Source: Microbacterium sp. (GTDB taxonomy: Bacteria > Actinomycetota > Actinomycetes > Actinomycetales > Microbacteriaceae). From it: DNA of 64,000 bases. Where the stretch lies: the NCBI RefSeq assembly GCF_041909575.1, contig NZ_JAYRDE010000004.1, positions 2,748 through 66,747 on the forward strand, written 5' to 3'. This document shows positions 469-61,600 of this stretch, one piece after another; position 1 is the first letter of the stretch, and the number at the start of each line of letters is the position of its first letter. The notes under the pieces were generated by a model that saw only the letters and a program-made list of their open reading frames with translations, was not told where the DNA came from and made no database searches. Both the position numbers and the translations under genes were made by a program.

Positions 469-3357
469 ATGAGCGCCGATCCGGTCACGCCCGCCCCGCC
501 CGACATCGACGAGGCCGCCGCGGCGGCGATCGCCCTCGAGCACTGGGGCATCGTCGCCACCGCGCGGGCACTGGGCAGCCATCAGGACCGCAACTTCCTG
601 CTCGAACCCGCCGACGGGCCGCGGCTGCTCCTCAAGATCGCGAACCCCAGCGTCTCGGCCGCGGAGCTCGAGGCGCAGTCCGCCGCGGCCGCGCTGCTGT
701 CCGAGCGGGCCGGCTGCCGCGCTCCCCGGGCCCGCGCCGCGAGCGACGGCACCACGGCGATCCTCCTCGACGTCGACGGCGTCGCCATGCACGGGCGGGT
801 CCTGGAGTTCCTCGAAGGCGAGACCCTGTCGGGGCACCTCCCCCGGCCCGTCGTCGAGGCGATGGGCGACCTCGCCGCACGGGTCGCGCTCGCCCTCGCG
901 GACCTCGACGCGCCAGCCGCCGAGCGTGTGCACCAGTGGGATCTGCGTCACGCCCGCGCCGTCCTGGACGATCTTCTCCCGTTCGTGGCCGACCCGGCTC
1001 TGCGCGCACGACTGACGGATGCCGCAGCCTCGGCCTGGTCGGTCGTCGACGCCGTCGCGCACGAGCTGCCGACGCAGTTCATCCACGGCGATCTGACCGA
1101 CGACAACGTCGTGACCGGCGACCCCGTCGCCCGCGTGCCCGACGGCGTGATCGACCTCGGCGACCTCAACCGCACCTGGACGGTCGGCGAGCTCGCGATC
1201 ACCGTCTCATCGCTGCTGCACCACGACGGCATCGACCTGCCGGCCGCGATGCGGGCCGTCGCGGCCTACCATCGGCGACGCCCGCTCTCCGACGCCGAGA
1301 CGACGGCACTGTGGCCGCTCCTCGTCGTGCGCGCCGCCACGCTCGTCGCGAGCGCCCATCATGTGCTGGCGACCGACCCCGGAAACGACTACGCCGCCGG
1401 GAACCTCGATCACGAGCTCGCGATCCTCGACGCCGCGACCTCCGTCCCGCTCGAGGTCGCGACGGCGCTCGTCGCGGCGGCGACCGGACGCGCGGCGGAT
1501 CCGCTCGCGCTCCCGCCCGGCCAGGCCCTGCTCCCCCGGCTCGGGCCGGGCGAGGTCGCCGTCGCCGATCTGTCGCCGACGAGCCCGGCGCTGCACGAAG
1601 GACGGTGGCTCGCCGCATCCGCCGAGGCCGACGTGATGAGCGGATGCCTCGGCTCCGCCCGCGTCGTCGTGGCGAGGTTCGGCGAGGCCCGGCTCACACG
1701 CTCACGACCGCTCCACCCCGCCGAGCCGCTCAACGTGGCACTCGGCGTCGAGCTGCTCTTCGGTGGAGCTGAGCGGGTCTCGGCGCCCTGGCCGGGAACG
1801 ATTCAGGCCACGACGCAGGGGGTGCGACTGCGCAGCGGCACGGTCGACCTCGTGCTCGACGGCGTGCGCAGCGCGGTGCCCGACGGCACCGCCGTCCAGG
1901 CCGGCGACCTCGTCGGCGAGGCACAGGGATCGCTGTGGGTCCAGGTCGTCCGCACCGGCGCGGAGGCGCCCCGGTTCGCTCCTCGCAGCCTCGCCGCGGC
2001 CTGGCGCGTGGTCGTCGCCGATGCGGGTGCGCTCGTGCCGGGGCATCCGTCATCGACCGCCGATCCGGACGCCGACGCCGCAGAGCTGCTCGCCCGGCGG
2101 GAGGCCGCGTTCGCCGACGTGCAGGAGCACTACTTCGCCGACCCGCCCGTGATGGTGCGCGGCTGGCGCGAGCACCTCGTCGACGCCGACGGGCGCGTGT
2201 ACCTCGACACCCTCAACAACGTGACCTCGATCGGGCACGCCCACCCGCGTCTGGTCGCCGCCGTCGCGGCCCAGTGGAATCTGCTGAACACGAACTCGCG
2301 CTTCCACTACCCCGCGGTCGTGGAGTTCTCCGAGCGCCTGGCGGGGCTCCTCCCCGACCCGCTGGACACCGTGTTCCTCGTCAACAGCGGCTCCGAGGCC
2401 GTCGACCTCGCCCTGCGGCTCGGCCAGGCGTGGTCGGGGCGCACCGACGTGCTGGCGCTGCAGGAGGCGTACCACGGCTGGACCTACCTCAGCGATGCCG
2501 TCTCGACCTCGGTCGCCGACAACCCCGCCGCGCCGGAGACCCGACCCGCCTGGGTGCACACGCTCCCCGCCCCGAATCCGCTCCGCGGCGCCCACCGCGG
2601 CGCCGACGCGGCGCGCTACGCCCCGGAGGCCGTCGCCGAGATCGACCGGCTGGCCGCCGCGGGAGCGGCACCCGGCGCGTTCATCGCCGAGACGCTCTTC
2701 GGGAACGGCGGCGGCGTGGCCCTTCCCGACGGATACCTCGACGCCGTGTACACCGCGGTCCGCGCCCACGGCGGGCTCGCGATCGCCGACGAGGTGCAGG
2801 TGGGCTACGGCCGGCTCGGCGAGTGGTTCTGGGGTTTCGACCAGCAGGGCGTCGTCCCCGACGTCGTCACCGTCGCCAAGGCGATGGGGAACGGGCATCC
2901 GCTCGGCGCCGTCATCACCACCCGCGAGATCGCCGACCGCTACCGCTCCGGCGGCTATTTCTTCTCGTCAGCGGGAGGGAGCCCCGTGTCGAGCGTCGTC
3001 GGCCTCACCGTGCTCGACGTGATCCGCGACGAGCGCCTGCAGGAGAACGCCCGCGACGTCGGCGGCTACCTCAAGGGGCGGCTCGAGGAGCTCGGGGAGC
3101 GGCATCCGCTCATCGGCGCGGTGCATGGATCGGGTTTCTATCTGGGCCCGGAGCTCGTGCGCGACCGCGCCACGTGGGAGCCCGCCACCGCGGAGACCGC
3201 GGCGATCTGCGTGCGCCTGCGCGAGCTCGGCGTGATCGCCCAGCCCACCGGCGACCACCAGAACATCCTGAAGATCAAGCCGCCGATGTGCTTCACGCGC
3301 GAAAGCGCGGATGCGCTCGTCGCGACGCTCGACCGCGTGCTGACGACCGGCTGGTGA
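469..3357 (+). CDS. Aminoglycoside-phosphotransferase-like kinase fused to class III PLP aminotransferase/phospho-lyase
   Basis: N-terminal HGDLTDDN and DLGD kinase motifs; C-terminal [26 protein letters not shown] motifs; RBS GAGGAG upstream. Confidence 0.9.
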
Positions 3358-3360
3358 GGG

Positions 3361-3825
3361 TCAGTCGCGGCCGCCGGGTGGCCCGACGATGAGCAGCACG
3401 ACGTAGAGCGCCACGACCGCGAGCGCGATCAGCAGGGCCAGCAGCCACGCGCGCGCCAGGAACCACCGCATCAGGCGGTCGTGCCACGCGGCGTCACGCG
3501 GATCGCCGGTCGCTGTCAGGCGCCACGGCCCGGCCAGGCGCCCCGAGCGGTGCAGCCACAGCTCGGTGGGGATCGTCGCGTACGGGATCACCGCGCTCGC
3601 GATCGCCACGATCGTCGGCCACGCCCCCCAGCGCTGGTTCTTCGCGACGAGCACCGCCGTGGCGCCGTACGAGAGGAACACGAACCCGTGGATGCCGCCG
3701 CCGATCGTCACCGCGACGGCGAGGTCGCTGGTCGCCCGCACGATGAGCCCCGCGATGAGCAGCGTCCACGAGATCGCCTCCGCGACCGCCATGACTCGGA
3801 ACAGGTTCAAGGGCGTGCGGAACAC
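3361..3825 (-). CDS. DUF3817-type membrane protein
   Basis: AVAEAISW...GGIHGFVF...PYAT pattern; hydrophobic helices; RBS GAAGGAG. Confidence 0.75.
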   Translation of the reverse strand: MFRTPLNLFRVMAVAEAISWTLLIAGLIVRATSDLAVAVTIGGGIHGFVFLSYGATAVLVAKNQRWGAWPTIVAIASAVIPYATIPTELWLHRSGRLAGPWRLTATGDPRDAAWHDRLMRWFLARAWLLALLIALAVVALYVVLLIVGPPGGRD

Positions 3826-3894
3826 AGGTCTCCTTCGGGTGTGGATGCCCCCAGCCTACGTTCGTGCGTCGTCGCGTCCTGACCGCCCGATCCG

Positions 3895-3970
3895 GTGAAA
3901 CGGCGGGGAGATTCCGGGGGCAGCGCCGCGGGACCGGCCCGGAAGCGGCCGTTTCTCCCCGCCGTTTCAC
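3895..3970. repeat. Intergenic long inverted repeat (perfect 17-bp arms)
   Basis: GTGAAACGGCGGGGAGA (3895-3911) / TCTCCCCGCCGTTTCAC (3954-3970). Confidence 0.85.
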
Positions 3971-3996
3971 GCCGCGCCGCCCGATACCGTGGGACT

Positions 3997-5106
3997 GTGG
4001 ACTTCTCCCCCGCCGCGCTGCGCCGCTGGCCCGATCTCGAGGGCCCTGATCTTCCGGCCTCGGATGCCGCGGACCGGCTGATCCTCGACGAGTCGGCGGA
4101 CGCGCGCTCCGCCGCAGCGGACGGAGCGATCGCAGTGATCGGCGACGCGTACGGAGCGCTCGCGCTGGGAGCGGCCGCCGACGGCGCGAGCGGCATCCGC
4201 GTGCACCAGGATGCGCTCACCGGCGAGCGCGCACTCGCGGCCAACGCCGAGCGCTTCGGGCTCCAGGTCGCGTTCACGTCGCTGCCGCTCTCGCCCGATG
4301 TGGTGCGCGGGGCGCGAGTCGTGCTGCTGCGACTGCCGCGCTCGCTGGACGCGCTGCGCGACATCGCCGGCCTCGTCGCCGCGCACGCCGACCCGGACGT
4401 CGTCGTCTACGCCGGCGGGCGGCTCAAACACATGACGGTGGCGATGAACGATGTGCTGCGCGAGCACTTCGAGCGGGTCGACGTGACCCACGCGCGCCAG
4501 AAGTCACGCGCGCTCATCGCCCGCGGCCCCCACGACGGCCGCGACCCCGCGCCGCGGCGCGAGCGGCACGACGGACTCGTCGTCTGCGCGTTCGGAGGGG
4601 TCTTCGCGGGGGCGTCCATCGACATCGGCACCCGGCTGCTCCTCGAGCACCTGCCCGTTCCACCGAAGGGGACGGATGCCGCCATCGACCTCGCGTGCGG
4701 CACCGGTGTGGTTGCCGCGACGCTGGCGCTGCGGCATCCGGAGCTGCGCGTGTACGCGTGCGACCAGTCCGCCGCCGCCGTCGCATCGGCGCGCGCCACC
4801 GCGGAGGCGAACGGCGTCGCAGACCGTGTCGAGGTCGTGCGCGACGACATGCTGGCCACGCGCGCCGATGCGTCGGCCGACTTCATCGCGCTCAATCCGC
4901 CGTTCCACGTGGGTGGGGCGATCAGCGAGAGCGTCGCGCCGCGCCTGTTCGCCGACGCCGCTCGCGTGCTGCGGCCGGGGGGCGAACTGTGGACCGTGTG
5001 GAACTCGGCCCTGCACTACCGGCTGGCTCTCGAGCGCCTCGTCGGACCGACGCGTCAGGTCGCGCGCAACACCAAGTTCACCCTGACGGCGTCGACCCGG
5101 CGCTGA
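3997..5106 (+). CDS. Class I SAM-dependent methyltransferase (RlmG/RsmC-like)
   Basis: DLACGTG and NPPFH motifs; start moved to GTG 3997, after the inverted repeat. Confidence 0.85.
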   Translation: MDFSPAALRRWPDLEGPDLPASDAADRLILDESADARSAAADGAIAVIGDAYGALALGAAADGASGIRVHQDALTGERALAANAERFGLQVAFTSLPLSPDVVRGARVVLLRLPRSLDALRDIAGLVAAHADPDVVVYAGGRLKHMTVAMNDVLREHFERVDVTHARQKSRALIARGPHDGRDPAPRRERHDGLVVCAFGGVFAGASIDIGTRLLLEHLPVPPKGTDAAIDLACGTGVVAATLALRHPELRVYACDQSAAAVASARATAEANGVADRVEVVRDDMLATRADASADFIALNPPFHVGGAISESVAPRLFADAARVLRPGGELWTVWNSALHYRLALERLVGPTRQVARNTKFTLTASTRR

Positions 5107-5125
5107 CTCACCGGGCGACCCGGGA

Positions 5126-5740
5126 TCACTCCTCGGGCGCGGTCTCCTCGGCCGGCGGGGCGAACGACACCCACACGCCGTCCGCGCACTGGTAGAACAT
5201 CGGCGCGGACGTGTCGATGTAGATCTCGTCGCCCTGGCAGCTGTCGGGCTCCGGCTCTCCCTCGCCGAGCGAGATCTGCGTGCCGGGATCGCCCTGCTCC
5301 CCCTGCTCGCCCTGCTCGCCGTCCGACCCGGAGGCGCCGGGGGCACCGGTCGCTCCCGTGAGGTTCGCGGCGGCGGACTCGCGGATGTTGCCCACGAGGG
5401 TCCAGTCGTCCTCGAAGAGGTACACGTCGGCCGTCGCGACGTCGATGTACACGTCGCCTTCGTATCCCTTGCCCGATTCGGGCGCACCCGATCCGGCGCG
5501 CACGGACGAGCCCGCCGGCAGGATCTCCTCGAGCGCGGCTTCGTAGTCCTCGGCCGTCGCCGTCTCCTGCACGGTCGGGGTGGGCTCGGCGGCGACCGGG
5601 GTCGTGTCGACCGATCGCGCGAGCCACGATCCGAGGAAGGCGGCGAAGAAGGCGAGGACGACGATCGCGAGGCCGAACCAGATCAGGGTGCCGCGTGAGA
5701 TGGATCCGGGCGCGGCGGGGGGCGGGATGCTGGCGGACAT
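5126..5740 (-). CDS. Membrane-anchored protein with short collagen-like (GXY)8 segment
   Basis: One N-terminal TM helix; GATGAPGASGSDGEQGEQGEQGDPG; start uncertain (5740 or 5791). Confidence 0.75.
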   Translation of the reverse strand: MSASIPPPAAPGSISRGTLIWFGLAIVVLAFFAAFLGSWLARSVDTTPVAAEPTPTVQETATAEDYEAALEEILPAGSSVRAGSGAPESGKGYEGDVYIDVATADVYLFEDDWTLVGNIRESAAANLTGATGAPGASGSDGEQGEQGEQGDPGTQISLGEGEPEPDSCQGDEIYIDTSAPMFYQCADGVWVSFAPPAEETAPEE

Positions 5741-5878
5741 GGGCGAGGCTCCGTTCGACCACTCCCCAGAGTGCCACGGGGGTTTCGGCACGGAGCGGCG
5801 TGACGCTCACTGTAGGGAGGGACGCGGGTGAGCGGCCTCACCCGAGGAGGATGATCCGCCGCCTACCGCGGGTGGGCG

Positions 5879-6262
5879 TCAGCGCGGGCTCCGCGTCGAC
5901 CAGAGGGCCCACGCCACCAGCACCGGCTGGAAGAAGAGGCGCACGAGCCGCTTGCTGTCGCTGTCGAGCCCGAACCCGTCCCGGCGCTTGGCGTACTGCT
6001 CGATGTTGCCGGGGAAGACCGCCACGAAGAAGGCGGCCAGGATCGCCCCCACGCGCCCACGGGACTCGGGGAGGGCGACGAGGGCGGTGCCGAGCATGAT
6101 CTCGGCGACGCCGGAGGCCACCACCACGGCATCCTCGTCTATGACCTTGGTGGCGAGGTCGGGCACCTGCGCCCGGAACTCGCGGCGTGCCCAGAACAGG
6201 TGGCTGATGCCGGCGAAGACCATGGCGGCCGCGAGCGTCCACCGGGCGAGGGTTCTCATCAT
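5879..6262 (-). CDS. DoxX-like membrane protein
   Basis: FAGISHL...SGVAEI...FFVAVFPGN...RLFFQP pattern. Confidence 0.8.
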   Translation of the reverse strand: MMRTLARWTLAAAMVFAGISHLFWARREFRAQVPDLATKVIDEDAVVVASGVAEIMLGTALVALPESRGRVGAILAAFFVAVFPGNIEQYAKRRDGFGLDSDSKRLVRLFFQPVLVAWALWSTRSPR

Positions 6263-6385
6263 GGCCCCACCGTCGCAGAGGATCCCCGGCACCGCGAGCA
6301 CTTGACAGGCCCTACGATCACGCCATGGACTATGCCCGCTGGCAGCGCGTGACCGGATACGAGTAGGGCGGCGGAACCGTCGCCA

Positions 6386-7387
6386 TCAGATCGAGATGGG
6401 CACGACTTCGCCGGAGGCCCGCCCGTCCGCGTGCAAGAGGTGACCGAGGTGCTTCGTCGTCCGCAGCACGACCGACCGGTCCGCGATGCTCACACCGGGC
6501 AGCCGCTCTTCGATGATCGCCTCCATGCGGCCGACGTCCTGCAGCGTCCGCAGCCAGACCGCCATGATCACGTTGTACTCGCCGACCGTGTTCGCCACCA
6601 GACGCACCTCCTCGATGCGGCCGAGCTGCTCCCCGATGCGGCCGGCTATCGCAGCAGGCACCCGCAGGAAGTACCAGGCGTAGATCGGCCACGGCGTGTA
6701 CCGCCGCGCGACATCGACACGGATCGCCAGCCGACCTGATTCCCGCATCTCCGCGATGGCGTCGCGCACTCGTCGCGGGGCCATGCCGAGGCGAGACGCC
6801 AGCTCGGTGACCCCCACGCGCCCGTCGTACGCCAGCTCTGCCGCGATCGCGCTGCGCTGCTCCACCGACATGCGCACGGATGCCGAGGGTGCGCGCCGTT
6901 CCAGGCTCTCAATCCGCGCGACCTCCTGCGACGAGAGCGCGCGGAGGCGCCAGCCCCGGGCATCGCGCACCGTCTCCGAGACCAGATGAGTGCGCATCGC
7001 ACTGACTCCGGTCACGCCCCGGATGCGCTCCAGCGTCCAGATCGCGAGCGCTTCGGCATCCGGAACTGCGAGCGAAAGGAGGATGTCCCTCCCGCCGGCG
7101 GTGAGGTCGATCGTGAACGCCTCAGGGTCGTTCCCGAGCGTCTCGGCCACCGACAGGGTCTCACCAGGGCGGCATTCGATCTCGATGAGGACGAGCATTC
7201 TCGACGCCCCGCCGCCGTAGCCCGTGACGTACACGATGCCCTGCTCGACGAGCCGCGCCCACCGGCGCGACAGCGTCACGGGGTCGACGCCGACGATCGG
7301 GGCGAGGGCTCTCCACGTGGCGCGCGGACTGACCTGCACGGCATGAATGAGGCGCTGATCGACGTCATCCAGGCCAATATCCTGCAT
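6386..7387 (-). CDS. Lrp/AsnC family regulator with tandem HTH-RAM units
   Basis: LDDVDQRLIHAVQVSPRATW HTH, then a second HTH (ELAYDGRVGVTELASRLG) and effector domain; start moved to ATG 7387. Confidence 0.88.
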   Translation of the reverse strand: MQDIGLDDVDQRLIHAVQVSPRATWRALAPIVGVDPVTLSRRWARLVEQGIVYVTGYGGGASRMLVLIEIECRPGETLSVAETLGNDPEAFTIDLTAGGRDILLSLAVPDAEALAIWTLERIRGVTGVSAMRTHLVSETVRDARGWRLRALSSQEVARIESLERRAPSASVRMSVEQRSAIAAELAYDGRVGVTELASRLGMAPRRVRDAIAEMRESGRLAIRVDVARRYTPWPIYAWYFLRVPAAIAGRIGEQLGRIEEVRLVANTVGEYNVIMAVWLRTLQDVGRMEAIIEERLPGVSIADRSVVLRTTKHLGHLLHADGRASGEVVPISI

Positions 7388-7485
7388 TCTGACCAGCTCT
7401 CGGTTCGATTTCCGGCACGCTGACAGGATTCTAGCGCCGCGGTTCTTAGAGTCGCTCACACCCCGATCCGATCTGAGGAGTTCAT

Positions 7486-11762: not shown

Positions 11763-12761
<999 letters not shown>

Positions 12762-52055: not shown

Positions 52056-52056
52056 G

Positions 52057-52129: not shown

Positions 52130-52197
52130 GTGAACCTCCGTTAGATTATCACGCTCCGAGAGGCCTCCCGCGCCGCCCTGTTCCACCGGCCGCCGCG

Positions 52198-52278
52198 CCA
52201 TAACTCCTCAAGAATCCGCCGCCTTCGGCCACTTTCCCCGCGGTCACGCCGATTCCGCGCCGAGCGTGAGGAGTACGG
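52198..52278. repeat. AACTCC-family inverted-repeat element (diverged copy)
   Basis: CCATAACTCCTCA / TGAGGAGTACGG; internal GATTCCGCG. Confidence 0.7.
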
Positions 52279-52322
52279 ACACCGCGGCTCCGCGCACCCC
52301 CGGCCGATCCCGCGACCGACGC

Positions 52323-52420
52323 CTGCAGAACTCCACGGAATCGGCATCCGGCCCCGCCGCCGTCCGCGCCGCACCGAGGGCTTCCGCGGCGGTGGCGTCG
52401 AGATCCGTGGAGTTCCGCAG
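52323..52420. repeat. AACTCC-family inverted-repeat element
   Basis: CTGCAGAACTCCACGGA / TCCGTGGAGTTCCGCAG (1 mismatch); internal TTCCGCG. Confidence 0.8.
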
Positions 52421-52532
52421 ACGCCGGCGCCAGCCCTCATCCCCGCGCGAACGGAGAGCGTACGGTTGACCGCTTCACGGCCGCCGAATCGGTCGTCCGC
52501 GCTCTCTCGACGAGACCCGGCGAACTCGGCGA

Positions 52533-53612: not shown

Positions 53613-53669
53613 GGGGACAACCGTACGTGCCGCGGGCGCCCGGGCCGCGGCATCCGTTCGCGTGTCGTC

Positions 53670-54299
53670 CTATGCGTGCAGGCGGTCCGCGGGCGGCACC
53701 GTCGCGGCATCCGCCGGCGCACGCCCGTCGATCCACCGTCGCAGCACCCCGTCCGGCACGTCCTCGCGCACGAGGGCGAACGCGTAGTGGTCGCGCCAGT
53801 CGCCGTCGATGTGGATGAATCTGCGGCGCAGCCCCTCGTAGCGGAAGCCGAGCTTCTCGACGACGCGGAGGCTCGCGGCGTTCTCGGGCCGGATGCAGAT
53901 CTCCATGCGGTGCAGGCGCAGCTCGCTGAAGCACACGTCGGTCGCGAGGGCGACGGCGGTGGGCGTGATGCCGCGCCCTGCGAACCGCTTGCTCACCCAG
54001 TAGCCGATCGTCGCCGAAGCGAGCGACCCGCGCGCGATCCCCCACACGTTGAGCTGTCCGGCGATGTTGCCGTCGTGCTCCATGACGAAGGGCACCCCGG
54101 CGCCGTCGCGGTACTGCTGCAGCAGGCGTCGGACGCCCAGGCGCATGTCGAACGAGACGGGCCCGTCGGGGCTCGTCGCCTCCCACGGGCGCAGCCAGTC
54201 CCGATTGGACAGGAGCTCGTTCTGGAGCGTCCGGGCGTCCCGCTGGCGCACCAGCCGGATCGACACCGGTCCGTGGCTGCGCGGAGCCGTCAGATCCAC
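53670..54299 (-). CDS. RimJ-like GNAT N-acetyltransferase
   Basis: LRPWEAT, IGYWV, LHRMEICIRPEN.AS.RV.EKLGF..EG, DGDWRDH; start approximate. Confidence 0.9.
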   Translation of the reverse strand: MDLTAPRSHGPVSIRLVRQRDARTLQNELLSNRDWLRPWEATSPDGPVSFDMRLGVRRLLQQYRDGAGVPFVMEHDGNIAGQLNVWGIARGSLASATIGYWVSKRFAGRGITPTAVALATDVCFSELRLHRMEICIRPENAASLRVVEKLGFRYEGLRRRFIHIDGDWRDHYAFALVREDVPDGVLRRWIDGRAPADAATVPPADRLHA

Positions 54300-54325
54300 G
54301 TCACCACCCCCTCGAACGGGCGGCG

Positions 54326-55213
54326 TCAGAGCTTCGCCGCGAACTCCTTGAACCACGGCCGCAGCTCGGGGCCGAGATCGTCGCGATCGGCGGCGAGCTG
54401 GACGATGGCCTTGATGTAGTCCACCCTATCGCCGGTGTCGTACCGGCGACCGCTGAACACGACGCCGTGCACGCCGGGGCCGTCGGGGTCGGCGGCGAGC
54501 TCCTGCAGAGCGTCGGTGAGCTGGATCTCCCCACCCTTCCCGGGCTCGGTGCGCGCGAGGATCTCGAAGACGCTGGGCGTCAGCACGTACCGGCCGATGA
54601 CGGCGAGGTTGGAGGGGGCGTCCTCCTTCGAAGGCTTCTCGACGAGGCCCGTGACGCGTACGATCCCGTCGGTGCCGGTCTCCTCGACGGCTGCGGCACC
54701 GTACATGTGGATGTGCTCGGGATCGACCTCCATGAGCGCGACGACCGTCGCACCGGTGCGCTCGTGCTCGGCGATCATCGTGGTGAGCAGCGGGTCGCGC
54801 TCGTCGATGAGGTCGTCCCCGAGCATCACGACGAACGAGGAGCTTCCCACGTGGGCCTTCGCGCGCAGCACGGCGTGGCCAAGCCCCTTGGGCTCGCCCT
54901 GACGGACGAAGTGGATGTCGGCGAGCTCGCTGGAGGCCTGAACCTTCGCGAGCTTGTCCTCGTCACCCTTATTGCGCAGGTTGTCCTCGAGCTCGGGCAC
55001 CGAGTCGAAGTGATTGGAGAGATTGTTCTTGTTGCGGCCGATGATGATCAGGATGTCGTCGATGCCGGCCTGGGTGGCCTCCTCGACGACGTACTGGATC
55101 GCGGGCTTGTCGACGACGGGGAGCATCTCTTTGGGCATCGCCTTCGTCGCCGGGAGGAAGCGGGTTCCGAGACCTGCGGCCGGGATGACAGCCTTCATGG
55201 GGGTGTTGGGCAT
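54326..55213 (-). CDS. galU: UTP-glucose-1-phosphate uridylyltransferase
   Basis: KAVIPAAGLGTRFLPATKAMPKEMLP, QGEPKGLGHA, GEIQLTDAL; TAGAAT -10 seven nt before the ATG. Confidence 0.96.
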   Translation of the reverse strand: MPNTPMKAVIPAAGLGTRFLPATKAMPKEMLPVVDKPAIQYVVEEATQAGIDDILIIIGRNKNNLSNHFDSVPELEDNLRNKGDEDKLAKVQASSELADIHFVRQGEPKGLGHAVLRAKAHVGSSSFVVMLGDDLIDERDPLLTTMIAEHERTGATVVALMEVDPEHIHMYGAAAVEETGTDGIVRVTGLVEKPSKEDAPSNLAVIGRYVLTPSVFEILARTEPGKGGEIQLTDALQELAADPDGPGVHGVVFSGRRYDTGDRVDYIKAIVQLAADRDDLGPELRPWFKEFAAKL

Positions 55214-55326
55214 GCCTGGCATTCTAGGGCGACCGGCTGCACCTCCTCCGCGCGTTGACACCGCGTGGCGCAGCCGATAGCCCGCATGCGACGCTGCCGA
55301 CCCGCGCGCCGCCTAGAATCGAGGGC

Positions 55327-55923
55327 ATGTCCGACGCGATCGCCGATGCGAAGCGCGCCCTGCGCGCGGAGCTCCGCGAGCGTCGGCAGCTGCTGACGCC
55401 GCACCAGCGCGAACTCGCCGCCGACGGCATCCGCTCCCAGCTCGACGCCCTGGTCGACCGGCTCGGCGTGACCTCGATGTCGTGCTTCCTCTCGACGACG
55501 ACCGAGCCGGGAACGCGCGAATTCGTAGCGGCGGCGGTGGAGCGCGGCATCCGCGTGCTCCTGCCGGTCACCCGCACGGACGGCCTGCTGGACTGGTCGG
55601 TCGCGACGCGCGACCTCGACATCGCCGAGGGCATGTTCGGCCTGCCTGAGCCCGTCGGCGAGCTCATCGGACCGATCGCCGTCAACGACGTCGACCTGCT
55701 CGTGATCCCGGCGGCCGCCGTCGACCGCAGCGGCATGCGCCTGGGCTGGGGCCGCGGCTACTTCGACAAGACGATCGGCTCGATGCACCGCTGCCCGCCC
55801 GTGTACGCGGTGGTCTTCGACTCCGAAGTGCTCGACGAGGTGCCCAGCGACGTGCACGACCAGCCCGTCACGGGCGCCGTCACCCCCACGCAGACCCTGG
55901 TCCTCGCGCCCGCCCGGCGCTGA
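55327..55923 (+). CDS. 5-formyltetrahydrofolate cyclo-ligase
   Basis: KRALR, EPGT, IPAAAVDRSG.RLGWGRGYFD, HDQPV. Confidence 0.93.
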   Translation: MSDAIADAKRALRAELRERRQLLTPHQRELAADGIRSQLDALVDRLGVTSMSCFLSTTTEPGTREFVAAAVERGIRVLLPVTRTDGLLDWSVATRDLDIAEGMFGLPEPVGELIGPIAVNDVDLLVIPAAAVDRSGMRLGWGRGYFDKTIGSMHRCPPVYAVVFDSEVLDEVPSDVHDQPVTGAVTPTQTLVLAPARR

Positions 55924-55940
55924 CAGCCCCTGAGAGAGAC

Positions 55941-56240
55941 ATGCCCACCTACGCCTACGCCTGCAAGCAGTGCGGCCACCGCTTCGACGCCGTGCAGTCC
56001 TTCGCCGACCCCACCCTCACCGAGTGCCCCGAATGCGGCGGACCGCTGCGCAAGGAGTACGGCTCGATCGGCGTGACCTTCAACGGCTCGGGCTTCTACC
56101 GCACCGACTCGCGCGCGTCGGGTTCGGGCGGCGGGACGGATGCCTCGGCTGGCGCCTCCTCGTCGGGTTCGGCATCATCGAAGTCCGAGGCGAAGCCGGC
56201 GGCGTCCTCCGCGAAGCCGGCGGCCTCGTCCGGGTCCTGA
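55941..56240 (+). CDS. FmdB-family zinc-ribbon protein
   Basis: MPTYAYACKQC...CPECGG, FNGSGFYRTDSR. Confidence 0.92.
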   Translation: MPTYAYACKQCGHRFDAVQSFADPTLTECPECGGPLRKEYGSIGVTFNGSGFYRTDSRASGSGGGTDASAGASSSGSASSKSEAKPAASSAKPAASSGS

Positions 56241-56293
56241 CCGGCGGGGCCGGGTCCACACCGGCGGAAGCCGGCGACAGTGAGGAGCAGCAC

Positions 56294-56707
56294 GTGATCA
56301 GAGGCTTCAAGGAGTTCATCCTCCGCGGCAACGTCATCGACCTGGCCGTCGCGGTGGTCATCGGCGCGGCGTTCACGGCGGTCGTCAATTCGATCGTCGC
56401 GAGCATCATCAATCCGCTCATCGAACTCTTCTGGAAGCCCGACGCGAACGGGAAGATCGGCTTCACCGTGGAGGGCCTGTGGGGCCCGGTCACCTTCCCG
56501 ATCAGCGACCTGATCAACGCGATCATCGCGTTCCTCGCGGTGGCCGTGGTGGTCTACTTCGTATTCGTCTACCCGATGAACCGGATCAAGGAGCGCGCCG
56601 CCGCCAAGGCCGGCGTCTCCCCCGCCGACGAGGAGCCGAAGCTCCCCACCGAGCAGGAACTGCTCGTGCAGATCCGCGACCTGCTCGCCGCCCAGCCGAA
56701 GGCCTGA
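56294..56707 (+). CDS. mscL: Large-conductance mechanosensitive channel
   Basis: GFKEFILRGNVIDLAVAVVIG.AF; LL.QIRDLL; RBS GAGGAG. Confidence 0.95.
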   Translation: MIRGFKEFILRGNVIDLAVAVVIGAAFTAVVNSIVASIINPLIELFWKPDANGKIGFTVEGLWGPVTFPISDLINAIIAFLAVAVVVYFVFVYPMNRIKERAAAKAGVSPADEEPKLPTEQELLVQIRDLLAAQPKA

Positions 56708-56768
56708 TCCCGCCGGGCCGCGCGGTGCGCGCGATGCGCGCCGTGCTGCGCCGTTCTTCCCGCCCTGC

Positions 56769-56868
56769 GGCGCAGAACTCCTGCAGATTGCCCGCGGCCG
56801 GCGGTCGCGGCCGCGGAATCCCGGGGCGCGGGGCCTGACGGCCCGCGAAAGTGCAGGAGTTATGCGCC
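56769..56868. repeat. AACTCC-family inverted-repeat element
   Basis: GGCGCAGAACTCCTGCA / TGCAGGAGTTATGCGCC; 66-bp spacer; same length and central motif as the 25262 copy, in opposite orientation. Confidence 0.9.
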
Positions 56869-56989
56869 CGAGGGGCCGGAGCCGATCCGGCGCCGCAGGC
56901 GGGAGATCTCGATACACGCCGGTGCGCGGCGCACTCGATCTTCACCCGAGACGCCTCAACGCCGCTGCGCGGCATTGACCCGGCTCGCG

Positions 56990-57184
56990 TCAATAGTGCG
57001 GGGGCACGTCCTGCCTCAGGCGCTCGTCGTTCGGGCCGGTAGAGGCAGCGGATGCCGCGGCGCGGCCGGGATCCGCGGACTCGTCGCCCGCCACCGGCTC
57101 GGCGCTCGTACCGGGGGCCGGGGTCAGCCGCACCCGACGGGAACCGGGGACCCGCTCGATGCGCTGGCGCTCAGTCGGACACAT
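56990..57184 (-). CDS. Small conserved-looking hypothetical protein
   Basis: RRVRLTP..G and terminal NDERLRQDVPPHY; overlaps the stop of the upstream large gene. Confidence 0.6.
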   Translation of the reverse strand: MCPTERQRIERVPGSRRVRLTPAPGTSAEPVAGDESADPGRAAASAASTGPNDERLRQDVPPHY

Positions 57185-60100
57185 CGAGCGGCTGCGTGTC
57201 GGTCTCGACGCGCGGGGCCTCGGGCGGCACGCCGAGCATCGCGGCGATCCGCTGGGCGACTCCCGCGGGGTCGCTGTACAGGTCGAACGAGTGCACGCGA
57301 ACGTAGTGCCAGCCGAGCCGGCGCAGGATCTGCGGCCGCAGTCGCAGCGACTCGCGCAGCGATTCGCCGATCGTCTCGGGGTCGCTCTCCACGACGACCG
57401 CCTTGCCGCCGTACTGCGCGACGAGCGGCAGCAGTCCGCGGTAGTGCACGTCGACCGAGAGCCCGCAGCGACGCAGTTCGCGCGCGAGCGCGAGGGTGAG
57501 CGGATCGGCGAGATCCTCGAGGCGGGCGTCTCGCGCCCGCGCGGCGATGCCCCCGAGGATCGACATCAGGGTCGCGGCTCCGTGCTCGAGGCGTCCGTCG
57601 TCGAAGGCCGAGGGGCGGATCGACGACACGATCACCATGGACCGGCGGGCGCGCGTCATCCCGACCGTGAGCAGGCGCTCCCCGTCGGGGGTCGACAGGT
57701 CGCCGAAGTCGCTGAGCACACGGCCGTGCTTGGTGAGCCCGAATCCGAGCGAGAAGATCACCCGGTCGCGGCTCTCGGCGACGGACTCCTCGAGGCTCAG
57801 CACGGCGAACGGCTCGGCGGTGTCGCGAGAGAGGAAGTCCGCGACATCCGATCGTCCGGCGAAAGCCGCCTCGACGGACGCGCGGATCCGCTCCGCGTGC
57901 CGCGGGCTGGCTGTCACGACCATGAGCGACTCCGAGCCGCGGTTGATCGCATGCTCGACGACGAGCGTCACGACGCGCTGCACCTCGGCGTCGGGGCTCT
58001 CGACCGCGCCGGTCACGGGATCGGGGGCTCCGGTGCCGCCTTCGACGTAGTCCACGCCCAGGCTGCCGCGCCCGAGGTACGACCCGGCCCACGGCAGCGA
58101 CACGATCTCGCCGCCGTAGAAGGCGTCGTTGACGAGTTCGGCGAGGTCCTCGCCGCCGGCGCGGTAGCTGCGGGTGAGCGTCTCGACGGGCAGCAGCTCG
58201 GCGAGGCGCTCGAACACGCTGACCGCGTCGAACGGCACCTCGGGCTCCTCTGCCGGCGCACCGGCGGCGACACGGAACGGCGTGGGCTTCTGCGTCACGG
58301 GGTCGCCGAACACGACGACCTGCCGGGCGCGGCGGAGCGCAGGCGCGGCTTCCGCGAGACACAGGGCCGCGGCATCCGCGATCACCACCACGTCGAACGA
58401 CGGCGCGGCCGGCAGGAGCGGAACGTCGTAGGGCGACGCCAGCCACACCGGCGCGAGCGTCCGCGAGAGAGTCGGCGCGACCTCGGCCAGCCGCGTCGCG
58501 GAGATCTCGCCGTTCTTGAGCGCGAGCTTCAGTGCGGCGGCCTCGTCGGACTCGTCCACGATGCCGATGCGCCACTGCGTCGCCAGCTGCGATGCGAGGA
58601 GAGGTCCGGATGCCGCGGCATGGGCCTCATCGACGAGCCGGAAGTCGCGTTCCAGGCGATCGACGACGGCGGTGTTGGCTCCGAGCACCGCACGGTCGGT
58701 GCGCAACAGCTGCTCGAGCGCGGACTGCCACCACGCGTACTCGAGCTCGTCGGCGACGCGCTCCTCGGGCACGTGCCGCACCGAGAGCTCGGTGAGCAGC
58801 GGCTCGAGGCCGAGCGCGGCGAGCTCGGTGCGCAGGGTGGCGCGCTCCTTGAGGTTGTCGAACACGTCGGATTCGGCGGCGAGGCCGGCGAGCGTGCGCA
58901 CGAGCTGCTTCACGGGTAGCGTGGCGAGACGCTCGGCGCCGGTGCGGCCGAGGATGGCGTCGAGTTCGCCCAGCTCCGCCTCGACGCGCGACCAGGCGAC
59001 GTGGACGTCGGCCAGGCCGATCGGCACCTCGGGCGTGACACCGGCGTCGACGAAGCGCTGCCATTCGGTGCGCTGCTGCTGGATGCGCACGAGCGCCTCG
59101 TACATGTCGGGCACGTGCACCCCGGGGCGCACGTACTCGCGCGAGAGCCGGCGCAGGCGGCGACGGTTGGCTCCGGTCATGTTCGGCGAGTCGCGGCGGG
59201 GTCCGTGCGCCTGGATGAGCTCGCCGAGCGGCCGCTCGAAGACCGTGAGGCTGAACTTGTCGAGCGAATCCCGGATGCCCTGCAGCACCCGCAGGTACGC
59301 CCCGAGCTCGGAGATCGTGTGGAAGGGGCGCATGCGCGTCTGCGCGATGAGCTCGTAGCCGCGCTCGAGCAGGCTGGGCAGCTCGCTGCGCTGCAGCTTG
59401 CCGGCGAGGGCGTGGGCGGCGCGGGCCTCCTCCGTCGTCGCGAACGACACGCCGTACCAGGGCGAGTCGTCGGGACCGAAGCGGAACTCCCCCAGCCGTG
59501 CGGCGGCGGCGAGCTTGGCGGCCGCTTCGGTGCGCGTGTCGGCCAGGCGCTCCAGGGTCACAGCGCCGAAACGCGCCGCAGTGGTCGGCGGGTTCTCGCG
59601 CCCGGCGAGCGTCGCGAGCGCGCGCAGGATCTCGAGCACCGAGACCCCGAGGGTCGGATGCTGCGCCGTGACCGCTCCGCGATAGTCGCGCAGCACGCCC
59701 CGGAGCCGGACGAGGGCGTCGTCGATGTCGGCGACCTTGGGCTTCTCGGCCTTCTCGTTGCGGCCGATCGCGCGGATGAGGTCGGCGCGCAGGCGCCGGG
59801 GCGAGACGGCGAGGCCGGGCAGGCCGACGGCGGCGAGGCGGTGGCGGATGCCGTCGATCGTCGAGCTGCGGGCGCTCACGACGAGCACGCGCTTGCCGTC
59901 GTGCACGAGCGCCCCGACGGCGTTGATCACGGTCTGGGTGCCGCCGGTGCCGGGAAGCGTGTGGACGGCGAGCGATTGTCCCGCGGTGATGCGGGCGAGG
60001 ACGCGCTCCTGCTCGGAGTCGGCGTCGAGGAGGAGGGTGTCGGCGGCGGGCGCGCGCTCGTCGGGGCCCACCGGCTCGACGGCGTCGCGGCGCAGCTGGA

Positions 60101-60890
60101 GCGTCTCGCGATCGGCGGGGTGACCGGCGAGCGCGTTGAGCACCGGGTGGTCGAGATCCGCCGCGTCGCGCGACATCCCGCTGCCGACGTCGGCGAAGCT
60201 CGAGACGAGCAGGCGCGGCTTGACGACGTAGGAGTCGATCCAGCCGGTCAGCGCGCGCAGGTGGTCGATGACGGGCTGCGGCTTGAACACGCCGCCCTCG
60301 TAGGCCAGGGCCGCGAGGCCGGCGCCGTCGAGCTCGATCGAGAAGTGGGCGAGCATCGCGCGCACGAGTTCGGGATTGACGATGAACGAGCCGTGGAGCT
60401 TCAGCTCGAAGTCGGAGTGATGGCGGCGGATGGCGAGCGGACGGAGCAGGATCGGCGCCGAGCACTCGAGCCCGCCGATGCGCCACTGGGCGAGGCCGAC
60501 GGCGAGATGCACGGACTCGAGGCCGCGGGTGGCGCGCAGCTCGACGTTCTTCGCGGTGATCCGCTCGGCGGCCAGGCGCGCGTTGCGCAGGGCGACCTCG
60601 TCGCGGAAGAGGTTCGACAGCAGCGTGGAGCGTCCGGTGATGAACTGGGGCAGGCTGCCCGGATGCGCCTTGGTGATCTCGATCGAGGCGTCGAGCGCGT
60701 CGGTGAAGTGCAGCAGCGTCGAACGGCCGCCGAGTTCGGCGGACTCCAGCCGCAGGCGCTCGCGCTCGGGGTCGGCGATGTGCGCCACCACGACATCGGG
60801 CTCGGCGAGGCCGAGATCGCTCGGCGTCACCGCGCTGCCGTGCACAGCGTCTTCTGCGCCGGCCACGACGCTGCCTTCTGCTCGCCACAC
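57171..60890 (-). CDS. Degenerate SF1 (Upf1/DNA2-like) helicase with C-terminal Vsr/DUF559-like nuclease fold
   Basis: DADSEQ, LPGTGGTQT, ADAAA, GDP, VGMTRAR, VESD...LRRLGW; TAGTGT -10 seven nt before GTG 60890. Confidence 0.88.
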   Translation of the reverse strand: MWRAEGSVVAGAEDAVHGSAVTPSDLGLAEPDVVVAHIADPERERLRLESAELGGRSTLLHFTDALDASIEITKAHPGSLPQFITGRSTLLSNLFRDEVALRNARLAAERITAKNVELRATRGLESVHLAVGLAQWRIGGLECSAPILLRPLAIRRHHSDFELKLHGSFIVNPELVRAMLAHFSIELDGAGLAALAYEGGVFKPQPVIDHLRALTGWIDSYVVKPRLLVSSFADVGSGMSRDAADLDHPVLNALAGHPADRETLQLRRDAVEPVGPDERAPAADTLLLDADSEQERVLARITAGQSLAVHTLPGTGGTQTVINAVGALVHDGKRVLVVSARSSTIDGIRHRLAAVGLPGLAVSPRRLRADLIRAIGRNEKAEKPKVADIDDALVRLRGVLRDYRGAVTAQHPTLGVSVLEILRALATLAGRENPPTTAARFGAVTLERLADTRTEAAAKLAAAARLGEFRFGPDDSPWYGVSFATTEEARAAHALAGKLQRSELPSLLERGYELIAQTRMRPFHTISELGAYLRVLQGIRDSLDKFSLTVFERPLGELIQAHGPRRDSPNMTGANRRRLRRLSREYVRPGVHVPDMYEALVRIQQQRTEWQRFVDAGVTPEVPIGLADVHVAWSRVEAELGELDAILGRTGAERLATLPVKQLVRTLAGLAAESDVFDNLKERATLRTELAALGLEPLLTELSVRHVPEERVADELEYAWWQSALEQLLRTDRAVLGANTAVVDRLERDFRLVDEAHAAASGPLLASQLATQWRIGIVDESDEAAALKLALKNGEISATRLAEVAPTLSRTLAPVWLASPYDVPLLPAAPSFDVVVIADAAALCLAEAAPALRRARQVVVFGDPVTQKPTPFRVAAGAPAEEPEVPFDAVSVFERLAELLPVETLTRSYRAGGEDLAELVNDAFYGGEIVSLPWAGSYLGRGSLGVDYVEGGTGAPDPVTGAVESPDAEVQRVVTLVVEHAINRGSESLMVVTASPRHAERIRASVEAAFAGRSDVADFLSRDTAEPFAVLSLEESVAESRDRVIFSLGFGLTKHGRVLSDFGDLSTPDGERLLTVGMTRARRSMVIVSSIRPSAFDDGRLEHGAATLMSILGGIAARARDARLEDLADPLTLALARELRRCGLSVDVHYRGLLPLVAQYGGKAVVVESDPETIGESLRESLRLRPQILRRLGWHYVRVHSFDLYSDPAGVAQRIAAMLGVPPEAPRVETDTQPLDVSD

Positions 60891-61063
60891 ACGAGCCACA
60901 CTAAGCGGCGATCCGCCGGGCCACTTGCAGCGGCGCCGAGTTTCGCGGTATTGGGACACGCCGAGTGATCAGCCCTTCCTCCCCAGCCCGCGAGCGACGC
61001 CTCCAGCACACAGCCTGTGCCCTGTGCGATCCGCCCGTCGCCCGGTCGCGCGAGGATGGTCGC

Positions 61064-61600
61064 ATGACCTCGCCGCACCCGCCCCGGTTCCTCGTCCACC
61101 CCTCTCCGGTCGGCGATGTCCTGATCGTCACGACCGACGACGGCGTGGTCACCCTCCACCCGTTCGAGGGTCCGCTCGGCGCCGAGCTCGAGCGCGTGGC
61201 GCTGGCGTTGCGAGAGCTTCCGGTTCCCGTCGAGACGGATGCCGCGACCGGCGACCTCGCCCATATCGCCGCCGCGCAGCTCGACGAGTACTTCGACGGC
61301 GAGCGCCGCGTGTTCGACCTGCCGCTGGACTGGCGACTCGTGCGCGGATTCACCCGCTCGGCGCTCGAGGCCGTGTGCGGCATCCCGTACGGCGAGACGG
61401 CCGGGTACGGCGAGGTCGCGATCAGCGCAGGGAGCCCGCGAGCTGCGCGCGCGGTCGGGACGGCGTGCGCGACGACCCCGTTCTCGATCGTCGTGCCGGT
61501 GCACCGCGTCGTGCGGGCGGACGGCTCGCTCGGCGAGTACGGCGGCCGGCCCGAGGTGAAGCAGTACCTCATCGATCTGGAGCGTGCCGCGGGCGTGTAG
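61064..61600 (+). CDS. Ogt/AGT-fold protein lacking the catalytic Cys (alkyltransferase-like)
   Basis: LDEYFDG, IPYGET..YGEVA, RAARAVGTAC, PVHRVV, YGG..VK..L. Confidence 0.88.
   Translation: MTSPHPPRFLVHPSPVGDVLIVTTDDGVVTLHPFEGPLGAELERVALALRELPVPVETDAATGDLAHIAAAQLDEYFDGERRVFDLPLDWRLVRGFTRSALEAVCGIPYGETAGYGEVAISAGSPRAARAVGTACATTPFSIVVPVHRVVRADGSLGEYGGRPEVKQYLIDLERAAGV

Follow-up and report, generated by a model that had tools for sequence, protein, structure and literature searches.

A hyper-abundant, orientation-balanced genomic word with related dialects in the Microbacteriaceae

To our knowledge, hyper-abundant genomic words are rare, and the uptake signal sequence (USS), the DNA uptake sequence (DUS), the highly iterated palindrome HIP1, Chi, and the FtsK-orienting polar sequences (KOPS) have each revealed a piece of chromosome biology. 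The balanced-orientation words that we know of all come from Gram-negative lineages, and we are aware of no uptake specificity or receptor described in high-GC Gram-positive actinobacteria. The function of HIP1, long unknown, has now been linked to transformation (bioRxiv 10.64898/2026.06.24.733823). Here, we analyze a 64,000-nucleotide stretch of Microbacterium sp. (RefSeq assembly GCF_041909575.1, contig NZ_JAYRDE010000004.1, positions 2,748 to 66,747; hereafter, the window), in which the octamer CGGATGCC recurs on both strands. A previous inspection of the letters of this DNA without database searches (hereafter, the sequence-only reading) had drawn attention to the octamer.

That reading estimated about 65 octamers and about 145 GGATGC/GCATCC hexamers by eye, and exact counting gives 66 octamers (34 on the forward strand and 32 on the reverse strand, at the coordinates it had listed) and 149 hexamers (77 and 72, respectively). 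Its mononucleotide expectation was also correct, at ~5.4 octamers from the base counts of the window. A dinucleotide-preserving shuffle (100 runs) produces a mean of 7.4 octamers and a maximum of 14, and a second-order Markov chain predicts 9; ranking by a maximum-order Markov model is uninformative for this word because its sub-words are themselves enriched. The core is sharpest as the heptamer GGATGCC, which occurs 106 times (52 forward and 54 reverse) against ~19 expected, and an alternative core, CGGATGC, has 89 copies. The octamer thus reaches a density of 1.03 per kb and the core heptamer 1.66 per kb, or about one word per 600 bases. Aligned copies yield the consensus a-C-GGATGCC-G-C-G-g-C-C, with the word extending further on one side than on the other: C precedes the heptamer in 62% of copies, and the G-C-G-g-C-C that follows is matched at 72, 65, 59, 51, 58, and 64%. 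Only the last position of the core is relaxed, and conservation around the copies fades past ~14 nt.

We mapped the genes of the window with a codon log-likelihood model, which assigned 56 genes and 92.6% coding sequence (CDS), and Pfam matches back this map (nrdHIEF, hut genes, an ABC sugar system, the heme operon hemA-E-Y-Q-C-B-L, mscL, and actP). CDSs hold 96 of the 106 heptamers, leaving 10 heptamers and 7 octamers outside genes. When codons are permuted within genes, 13.4 +/- 2.4 octamers remain, and when synonymous codons are shuffled such that each protein and its codon usage are kept, 18.6 +/- 2.6 remain (maximum, 27). Both shuffles are generous, as their codon pools already include the rare codons brought in by the word itself. 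A first-order codon Markov expectation, the exact limit to which a dicodon-preserving shuffle converges, allows 23.7 octamers and 52.9 heptamers in CDSs, compared to 59 and 96 observed, respectively. The enrichment therefore outlasts the very null under which the sequence-only reading had allowed that it might disappear. CGGATGCC is the most deviant of all 8-mers under the synonymous shuffle (z = 19), and the next outliers (GGATGCCG, GCATCCGT, GACGGATG, ATGCCGCG, and others) derive from the extended motif in nearly every case.

Copies had been described in CDSs of both strands, in several frames, and in intergenic DNA, and we find the heptamer in five of the six reading frames. Sense copies mostly read nnG-GAT-GCC (x-D-A; 39 copies), with 2 copies in each of the remaining two sense frames, and antisense copies read GGC-ATC-Cnn (G-I-x; 24 copies), nnG-GCA-TCC (x-A-S; 22 copies), or nGG-CAT-CCn (x-H-P; 7 copies). 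The flanking consensus C...GCG is identical across every frame class. Codon choice depends on whether the word is completed. Asp is encoded by GAT in 39 of 52 nnG-GAT-GCC contexts (75%) versus 13% of other contexts, as the sequence-only reading had remarked for GAT in place of GAC, and in only 8 of 79 cases (10%) where the preceding codon does not end in G. Similarly, Ala is GCA in 22 of 34 nnG-GCA-TCC contexts (65%) versus 4% otherwise, and His is CAT in 7 of 8 nGG-CAT-CCn contexts versus about 11 to 14% overall. About a quarter of the amino-acid-compatible positions (96/374) spell the heptamer. The excess over coding-aware nulls, the same word and flanks in five frames, and the context-dependent codon choice together exclude a coding artifact, which supports the conclusion that the word is a signal at the DNA level rather than a protein or codon artifact.

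Three stretches had been singled out as devoid of copies (nrdHIEF, 19.8 to 22.3 kb, and actP). They are indeed free of the octamer, but this is within chance, the probability of a count no higher than that observed being 0.17 to 0.55. The nrdE and nrdF genes together offer 6 compatible positions, with ~1.5 copies expected, and highly conserved proteins offer few compatible positions at all. No gene of the window is significantly poor in copies (P >= 0.12), and GC content at third codon positions shows a weak correlation with the fraction of realized sites (rho = -0.27, P = 0.15).

The two strands are used equally in the window (34/32 octamers and 52/54 heptamers) and near-equally in most of the motif-rich loci described below, with no consistent strand skew in the window or in any locus sampled. 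The 64-kb window must lie on one replichore, and the spacing of copies within it is indistinguishable from Poisson. These counts bear out the earlier judgment that the balanced orientation is unlike the polar Chi and KOPS sites and closer to HIP1 or DNA uptake sequences. Being both hyper-abundant and orientation balanced, the word falls into a small class with DNA uptake sequences and HIP1.

To place the word phylogenetically, we surveyed hemB and its surroundings in eighty 20-kb loci that span the Actinobacteria. The window's HemB shares 95% identity with its counterpart in Microbacterium sp. Root180 and 86 to 94% with its counterparts in M. insulae, M. allomyrinae, M. trichothecenolyticum, M. 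yannicii, and others; DNA of the window is also present in an activated-sludge metagenome run. GGATGCC is rich, at 0.8 to 3.2 per kb and an observed/expected ratio (O/E) of about 3.5 to 9, in most Microbacterium and in Mycetocola, Marisediminicola, Cryobacterium, Agromyces, Rhodoglobus, Glaciihabitans, Okibacterium, and Salinibacterium. It is near expectation, at 0.1 to 0.5 per kb, in Arthrobacter, Kocuria, Cellulomonas, Nocardioides, Streptomyces, Kitasatospora, Nocardia, and others, and it is likewise not enriched in the Microbacteriaceae genera Clavibacter, Curtobacterium, and Leucobacter. The 9-mer CGGATGCCG is 13-fold denser in motif-rich Microbacteriaceae (235 copies in 381 kb) than in the comparison loci, which comprise other Actinobacteria and a few motif-poor Microbacteriaceae (28 copies in 583 kb); the sequence-only reading had considered that other actinobacteria might match the abundance, and they do not. 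CGGATGC, ACGGATG, and GGATGCC are the top three of 9080 7-mers in differentiating the rich group from the comparison group.

M. oryzae has few GGATGCC but 42 copies of GGATGGC versus 6 expected. The Clavibacter locus has 40 copies of GGATCC versus 9 expected, with G/C flanks in any arrangement, such that its word is palindromic; Leucobacter weissii shows a weaker GGATCC excess, and Okibacterium and Glaciihabitans have both GGATGC and GGATGG. At orthologous codons, each lineage picks the synonymous codon by which its own dialect is completed: GAC GGC ATC CTC in the window is GAC GGG ATC CTC in Clavibacter, and ACC GCG ATC CGC in the window is ACC GCC ATC CGT in M. oryzae. These results support a lineage-specific, orientation-balanced signal with one- or two-letter dialects in related genera. 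The earlier remark that the core contains the type IIS-like words GGATG/GCATC does not generalize, as GGATCC of Clavibacter holds neither word and GGATGGC of M. oryzae only one.

We evaluated the conservation of individual sites by aligning orthologous positions in relatives, a comparison that the sequence-only reading had proposed. Of 27 window copies that fall in genes aligned to Root180 (85% nucleotide identity), 18 remain intact there, in contrast to 37% of all 7-mers (P = 0.002); with identical amino acids and frame-matched controls, 17 of 23 are conserved versus 10.5 expected (P = 0.006). Across five relatives at 80 to 85% identity, 12 to 18 of 19 to 23 copies with conserved amino acids are kept versus 7.5 to 10.5 expected (P = 0.0001 to 0.1), and the excess is stronger when the relatives' copies are taken as the starting point (P = 5e-5 to 2e-3), although these five comparisons share phylogeny and are not independent. 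Sites are thus conserved above background in all five relatives, and the excess over frame-matched controls indicates that synonymous positions within copies are protected. At ~70% identity, only 0 to 3 of 8 to 15 copies are common and most copies are at non-orthologous places. Many gains at this distance change the amino acid, with VTDVE in the window versus VTDAA or VTDAD in three other genera and AAAEA versus AAASA. Given this conservation between near relatives and turnover between distant ones, the word is continually made and kept in each lineage.

We considered a palindromic main form and rejected it. GGATGCC differs from its reverse complement, GGCATCC, and its 3' flank GCGGCC does not run on into GGCATCC: the flank position that would need A is A in 8 of 106 sites and C in 68 of 106. 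The 16-bp palindrome GGATGCCGCGGCATCC, two motif copies back to back, is limited to a handful of orthologous coding positions within the hemB and hemL genes of close relatives (A-D-A-A-A-S) (Table 1). The window retains a half-decayed version in hemL, where the change from GAT to GAG has removed the left half, indicating that a single substitution with a D/E change gains or loses a copy.

Two inverted pairs in spacers of the window form hairpins (Table 1). The stronger one is in a terminator-like position between co-directional genes, the stop codon of a Glu/Leu-dehydrogenase-family gene (40111) and the start codon of a ZIP transporter gene (40305), and relatives keep only its right-hand copy. 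The other sits in the divergent spacer between nrdH and a major facilitator superfamily (MFS) gene, and comparable inverted pairs are found in spacers of relatives. Short direct repeats precede the stronger hairpin, with GATCCGCGGCGCTGA present ~3 times and CGGCGGTGAT 3 times; the close relatives L085 and L087 lack them at this location.

We also counted the word in mobile DNA of the family (Table 1), a small sample in which the plasmids are lower in GC content than the chromosomes. For CGGATGC, the two Cryobacterium plasmids sit at expectation (O/E 1.0). The two Microbacterium phages, whose accession numbers were taken from PMC7302621, have O/E values of 1.25 to 1.9 for CGGATGC and 1.7 to 2.7 for GGATGCC, and the antisense bias of their copies reflects the GGC-ATC-C codon effect, as codon usage predicts. 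A search with an HNH protein for Microbacterium phages returned gut phage contigs only. The counts imply that the word is neither avoided as a restriction target nor quickly imposed on all DNA replicating in the cells. Phage Zeta1847 also contains GTTTACA, GTGTAAA, and CGTGTAA 22 to 23 times each versus 0.2 to 0.9 expected, which suggests that a repeated motif about a dozen bases long recurs throughout the genome of this temperate phage, perhaps as operator-like sites.

We tentatively favor, as the best reading, a self-DNA tag akin to DUS, USS, and HIP1 that would have accumulated through biased DNA import. (A)CGGATGC(C)(GCG) would then be a chromosome-wide, lineage-specific self tag at the DNA level, read, like USS and DUS and reportedly HIP1, by a putative sequence-specific DNA-binding component of a homologous-DNA import pathway, either natural transformation or a related route. 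Fragments carrying the word would be preferentially taken up or retained and would then recombine, such that copies newly arisen by point mutation could spread and decayed copies could be restored (molecular drive, possibly with selection). Over the long term, such drive would put the word on both strands, in every frame, and in spacers, against codon bias and sometimes against weakly constrained amino acids. Plasmids and phages may lack the word as a result of their short residence in the lineage, and the genome would follow any shift in the specificity of the reader, giving rise to dialects. We infer that a reader exists, that it is tied to DNA import, and that drive maintains the word. In USS and DUS genomes, molecular drive is marked by this combination of dialects, scarcity in mobile DNA, gains that override codons and amino acids, and spacer hairpin pairs. 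For two other Microbacteriaceae, Rhodoluna lacicola and Aurantimicrobium photophilum, natural transformability as such is documented (PMC11577799), and an activated-sludge Microbacterium population acquired spiked plasmid DNA (bioRxiv 10.1101/2022.09.16.508255). HIP1 reportedly boosts transformation in a way that depends on methylation (bioRxiv 10.64898/2026.06.24.733823). Among repair, a nucleoid protein, and uptake, the three forces put forward by the sequence-only reading, import bias provisionally ranks first, and sequence alone cannot separate the three decisively. A more specific proposal, which we consider doubtful, is that the Microbacteriaceae carry the first DNA-uptake-type self-recognition sequence known to us in a Gram-positive or actinobacterial lineage, with a putative import reader that prefers (A)CGGATGC(C), whose specificity may have shifted in M. 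oryzae (GGATGGC) and in Clavibacter (GGATCC), and with molecular drive that may have rewritten ~1.7 sites per kb of each chromosome to match.

Several observations weigh against biased import. Words one base away from the 7-bp core show neither enrichment nor depletion (z = -1.1 to +2.2), although a graded bias in uptake should enrich such variants. The overall enrichment, 5- to 7-fold over Markov expectation and 2.5- to 3.5-fold over the codon-aware nulls, is modest; classical USS and DUS are enriched 100-fold or more. Intergenic heptamers are in weak excess (10 versus 7.9 expected), and pooled neighbors within 60 nt show a modest preference for inverted (43) over direct (24) arrangement, a figure inflated by orthologous sites counted repeatedly. 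No obvious uptake, competence, or reader candidate is encoded in the 64-kb window. The plasmid spiked into sludge was synthetic, so that its uptake needed no word. The phage O/E values are set against loci from bacteria other than the hosts, M. foliorum and M. paraoxydans, and the excess conservation of sites equally fits direct selection on each site.

A rival explanation is an epigenetic or repair-maintained word, with a conserved orphan DNA methyltransferase or other modification enzyme targeting the word and with either a function of the methylated sites or sequence-specific short-patch repair of near-cognate mismatches into the word, as in very-short-patch (VSP) repair on CCWGG, keeping it abundant. 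We consider this unlikely, even though enzyme-like specificity predicts a sharp 7-bp core without enriched one-off variants, the palindrome GGATCC of Clavibacter has the classic shape of a type II target, dialects one or two bases apart resemble methyltransferase specificity shifts, and sites are conserved beyond synonymous expectation. The asymmetry of the main form does not fit, and neither does the variant spectrum: VSP-like loss of T or A variants is not seen, no deamination-type variant being depleted, the C-to-T variants GGATGTC and GGATGCT being slightly enriched, and the G-to-A variants being unremarkable. Repair acting on all cellular DNA should also mark plasmids and phages eventually, yet their enrichment ranges from none to ~twofold, which short residence could explain. 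The methyltransferase-domain proteins of the window match the MTS, PrmA (rRNA/protein-type), UbiE/COQ5-type, and Ogt-type Pfam families, and none of their matches is to a DNA-methyltransferase family. The earlier suggestion of a HIP1-like signal maintained by methylation-coupled repair is upheld for the lineage-specific DNA-level word, whereas its repair component gains nothing from the one-off variants. HIP1, with DmtA and DmtC, provides a precedent for modification (bioRxiv 10.64898/2026.06.24.733823), and if the import pathway reads methylation, as reported for HIP1, the epigenetic explanation would be compatible with biased import and may be the same story from the other side.

The word could also be bound by a nucleoid-associated, condensin-loading, or segregation-related factor, with each site directly selected, as the HIP1 authors inferred for HIP1 (PMC5861425). 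Sites conserved above frame-matched synonymous controls are consistent with such a chromosome-organizing protein, and so is a mark of chromosomal DNA that the sampled plasmids and phages lack or show far more weakly. We nevertheless judge it rather improbable given the Poisson-like spacing in the window, the near-complete turnover of sites between genera while density is kept, and the cost to codon bias and amino acids, which is high at ~1.7 sites per kb; we also know of no 7-bp-specific nucleoid protein of this kind in Actinobacteria. Less probable still is a Chi-like signal that modulates a helicase-nuclease (RecBCD or AdnAB) and marks the chromosome as self in double-strand break processing. 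Chi sequences are short, asymmetric, and lineage-specific, as this word is, and its chromosomal specificity, weak or absent in phages and plasmids, would suit that role, but there is no polarity (52/54 within a one-replichore window, with most motif-rich loci close to parity), Clavibacter has a palindromic form, and known 7- to 8-nt Chi sites are far less dense than 1 per 600 bp. Least probable by far, and largely refuted here, is a non-functional by-product of codon-pair or dipeptide preference or of clade-specific, context-dependent mutation bias, for although part of the raw count is compositional (codon-aware nulls lift the expectation from ~7 to 19 to 24) and antisense GGC-ATC-C uses common codons, accounting for the phage copies (17/17 in Dismas and 21/27 in Zeta1847), the octamer still stands 2.5- to 3.5-fold above these inflated nulls as the top outlier of all 8-mers, with the same word and flanks in five frames, both strands, and spacers, rare codons picked specifically where the word is completed, single-base dialects in sister lineages of the same GC content, conserved synonymous positions inside copies, and no neighboring one-off word enriched.

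Table 1. Positions of the word and of other features in the window and in relatives, and counts in mobile DNA and chromosomal loci
Feature	Sequence or word	Position	Strand	Details
Heptamer on forward strand (starts)	GGATGCC	1017, 1642, 3690, 3843, 4062, 4674, 6878, 8388, 9596, 10444, 10882, 11158, 15838, 17409, 17670, 19175, 19774, 20281, 23089, 24084, 25837, 27429, 28745, 29423, 30539, 31719, 32644, 35976, 36593, 37581, 37928, 38971, 39256, 40246, 41640, 42183, 44333, 44559, 46055, 46748, 48719, 49153, 50154, 51898, 52977, 56138, 57050, 58608, 59273, 59846, 61237, 62073	+	
Heptamer on reverse strand (starts)	GGCATCC on +	2042, 2894, 3101, 4192, 4733, 6128, 7055, 8358, 10495, 11108, 15881, 17490, 18052, 22296, 22307, 22498, 24048, 24418, 24534, 26452, 27348, 29447, 30008, 30028, 30168, 31955, 32380, 34529, 36102, 36387, 37048, 37120, 37820, 38494, 38590, 39872, 40270, 40674, 41363, 42328, 44502, 46215, 47415, 49244, 49741, 49859, 50949, 52343, 53649, 53706, 55426, 55546, 58371, 61379	-	
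Whole set	GGATGCC, CGGATGCC	1016..62079	both	106 heptamers, 66 of them octamers
Sense site, nnG-GAT-GCC	GAC GTG ACG GAT GCC GCG GCC GCC	19174..19181	+	D V T D A A A A; rare GAT
Antisense site, nnG-GCA-TCC	GCC GCG GCA TCC GTC	29422..29429	+	A A A S V; rare GCA
Antisense site, GGC-ATC-Cnn	CGC GGC ATC CGT	42182..42189	+	R G I R
Antisense site, nGG-CAT-CCn		37580..37587	+	G H P; rare CAT
Intergenic inverted pair	CGGATGCCCCG-N11-CGGGGCATCCG	40245..40277		strong hairpin, minimum free energy -34.7 kcal/mol for 40236-40290
Intergenic inverted pair	CGGATGCC...GGCATCCG	15837..15888		44 nt start to start; weaker hairpin, -25.1 kcal/mol for 15826-15900
Half-decayed palindrome in hemL	GGATGCC-GC-GGCATCC	50940..50955	+	window GCG GAG GCC GCG GCA TCC; L002, L085, L086, and L088 GCG GAT GCC GCG GCA TCC
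Palindrome in relatives	GGATGCCGCGGCATCC	L002 11982-11997; L085 10789-10804, 12006-12021; L086 10807-10822, 12024-12039; L088 12057-12072		
Direct repeats before stronger hairpin	GATCCGCGGCGCTGA, CGGCGGTGAT	40112-40235		
Candidate SOS box	TAGAACATATGTACGA	42488-42503		11 nt upstream of start (42477)
DUF222/HNH-type gene		41101-42477	-	
tRNA-Ala (anticodon CGC)		52056-52129	-	
ORF without Pfam match		57171-60890	-	1239 aa
AT-richer stretch upstream of nrdH	CCAATACTACATATGGGTAC, CACAAGGGCTAGTAGTTACATCAGTGTG	~15660-15740		
Cryobacterium plasmid pA28BH1	CGGATGC			10 versus 9.7 expected
Cryobacterium arcticum plasmid pP27867_1	CGGATGC	1-50 kb		14 versus 14.5 expected
Six Cryobacterium chromosomal loci, one at 63% GC	CGGATGC			O/E 2.6-6.2
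Microbacterium phage Dismas	GGATGCC			17 versus 9.9 expected; 17/17 antisense to genes
Microbacterium phage Zeta1847 (MH271320, L083)	GGATGCC			27 versus 10.1 expected; 21/27 antisense
Clavibacter plasmid pCM2	GGATCCC			O/E 2.0
Clavibacter chromosomal locus	GGATCCC			O/E 6.4

Other features of the window were recorded alongside the word (Table 1). Upstream of the DUF222/HNH-type gene lies TAGAACATATGTACGA, which differs at 2 positions from TCGAAC-N4-GTTCGA, the LexA/SOS box of actinobacteria, and resembles it; SOS regulation applies to the DUF222 "REP13E12" genes of mycobacteria. The stretch upstream of nrdH contains CCAATACTACATATGGGTAC and CACAAGGGCTAGTAGTTACATCAGTGTG, which resemble NrdR boxes. 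The tRNA-Ala gene is the only RNA gene found in the window and occupies the spacer between a DUF6624 gene and a convergent gene without a Pfam match, together with the motif copy at 52343. The 1239-amino-acid open reading frame (ORF) has no Pfam match at 1e-5; its partial alignments (713 amino acids in L002) reach 84 to 93% identity in close Microbacterium relatives, where the homologue has a weak PF18741 (MTES_1575) match only. The Markov z-score outliers TAGTCCA and GGTCCA were set aside after a palindrome test found no operator; TAGTCCA has 8 copies, every in-gene copy being antisense and consistent with Asp-Tyr and similar dipeptides (one checked). Elsewhere in the survey, an unrelated locus, from a metagenome-assembled genome (MAG) of Pedococcus (L075), carries its own word, CGGCATAC, 18 times versus 1 expected, Cryobacterium glucosi (L046) has 27 copies of CTCGCGA versus 3.4, MAG L055 over-represents GTACGAC/CGGTACG, and a (GATCAG)n tandem array is present in Cryobacterium algoritolerans (L009). 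CTCGAG(C) is enriched 3- to 5-fold in Rathayibacter, Curtobacterium, and Amnibacterium compared to other Actinobacteria, which may be codon usage.

A family-wide word with single-base dialects in high-GC Gram-positive bacteria would point to self-DNA recognition in actinobacterial gene exchange or to a new epigenetic or chromosome-organizing system. Added to constructs, it might raise transformation efficiency in Microbacterium, Clavibacter, and Cryobacterium, genera in which genetic manipulation is often difficult. Word density offers a simple way to separate chromosomal DNA of long residence from the DNA of plasmids, phages, or islands in these genomes and in metagenome bins. The word, carried by about a quarter of amino-acid-compatible positions, also distorts codon-usage and selection analyses in these taxa. 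The dialects are, in effect, a natural experiment that phylogenetic profiling could exploit to identify the putative reader. A literature search that covered sources other than subscription literature found no mention of the word or of any hyper-abundant word in Microbacteriaceae or other Actinobacteria, an absence that is no proof of novelty, and the sole paper with both octamer strands has them in loop-mediated isothermal amplification (LAMP) probe sequences.

Among known systems, several resemble the word in part. Dispersed repeats (repetitive extragenic palindromes [REP], bacterial interspersed mosaic elements [BIME], and miniature inverted-repeat transposable elements [MITE]) share many copies and some spacer hairpins, but the word is not a mobile element, and the ~14-nt limit of conservation and the genic location of about 90% of copies exclude them. 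A restriction-modification target is excluded as well, since the word is enriched in the host and is at or slightly above expectation in phages. The polar chromosomal octamers Chi, KOPS, and the architecture-imparting sequences (AIMS) are likewise short, asymmetric, and over-represented but strongly skewed with the direction of replication, and strand parity excludes them. The VSP-driven excess of CCWGG in Escherichia coli is similar in that an oligonucleotide may be enriched by a DNA-level process and not by coding needs. VSP repair depletes the T-containing near-cognate word, whereas no T variant is depleted here and the effect size is larger.

HIP1 (GCGATCGC) and the HIP variants of cyanobacteria are closer: they are hyper-abundant, restricted to a phylum or family, and mostly genic, with sites conserved above background and with sub-lineage variants, and the Clavibacter dialect GGATCC is also a palindrome (Elhai 2015, PMC4390886; Xu et al. 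2018, PMC5861425). They differ in that HIP1 is palindromic while the main form GGATGCC is not, in the 15- to 300-fold enrichment reported for HIP1, which exceeds ours, in the cognate methyltransferases known for HIP1 (DmtA and DmtC), and in a periodicity of 10 to 90 kb that lies beyond the reach of the 64-kb window. The word also resembles the USS of Pasteurellaceae and the DUS of Neisseriaceae, the latter with dialects (Frye et al. 2013, PMC3630211). Like the word, these are short and asymmetric, occur about once per kb on both strands without polarity, are mostly genic in several frames where they reshape codon and even amino acid choice, have a strong core with weaker one-sided flanks and single-base dialects in related lineages, are rare in mobile DNA, and in some cases form hairpins from intergenic inverted pairs. 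The Microbacteriaceae word differs in its much lower fold (about 5- to 13-fold), its lack of enriched one-off variants, its weak intergenic or terminator bias, and its host, a high-GC Gram-positive actinobacterium. Membership in the uptake-sequence family is not claimable given this lower magnitude of enrichment, and the defining function, a preference of competent cells for word-bearing DNA through a dedicated receptor, is a prediction here. Compared with USS, DUS, and HIP1, what appears to be new is the phylum, the sequence itself, the coexistence of asymmetric and palindromic dialects, and a putative reader of its own.

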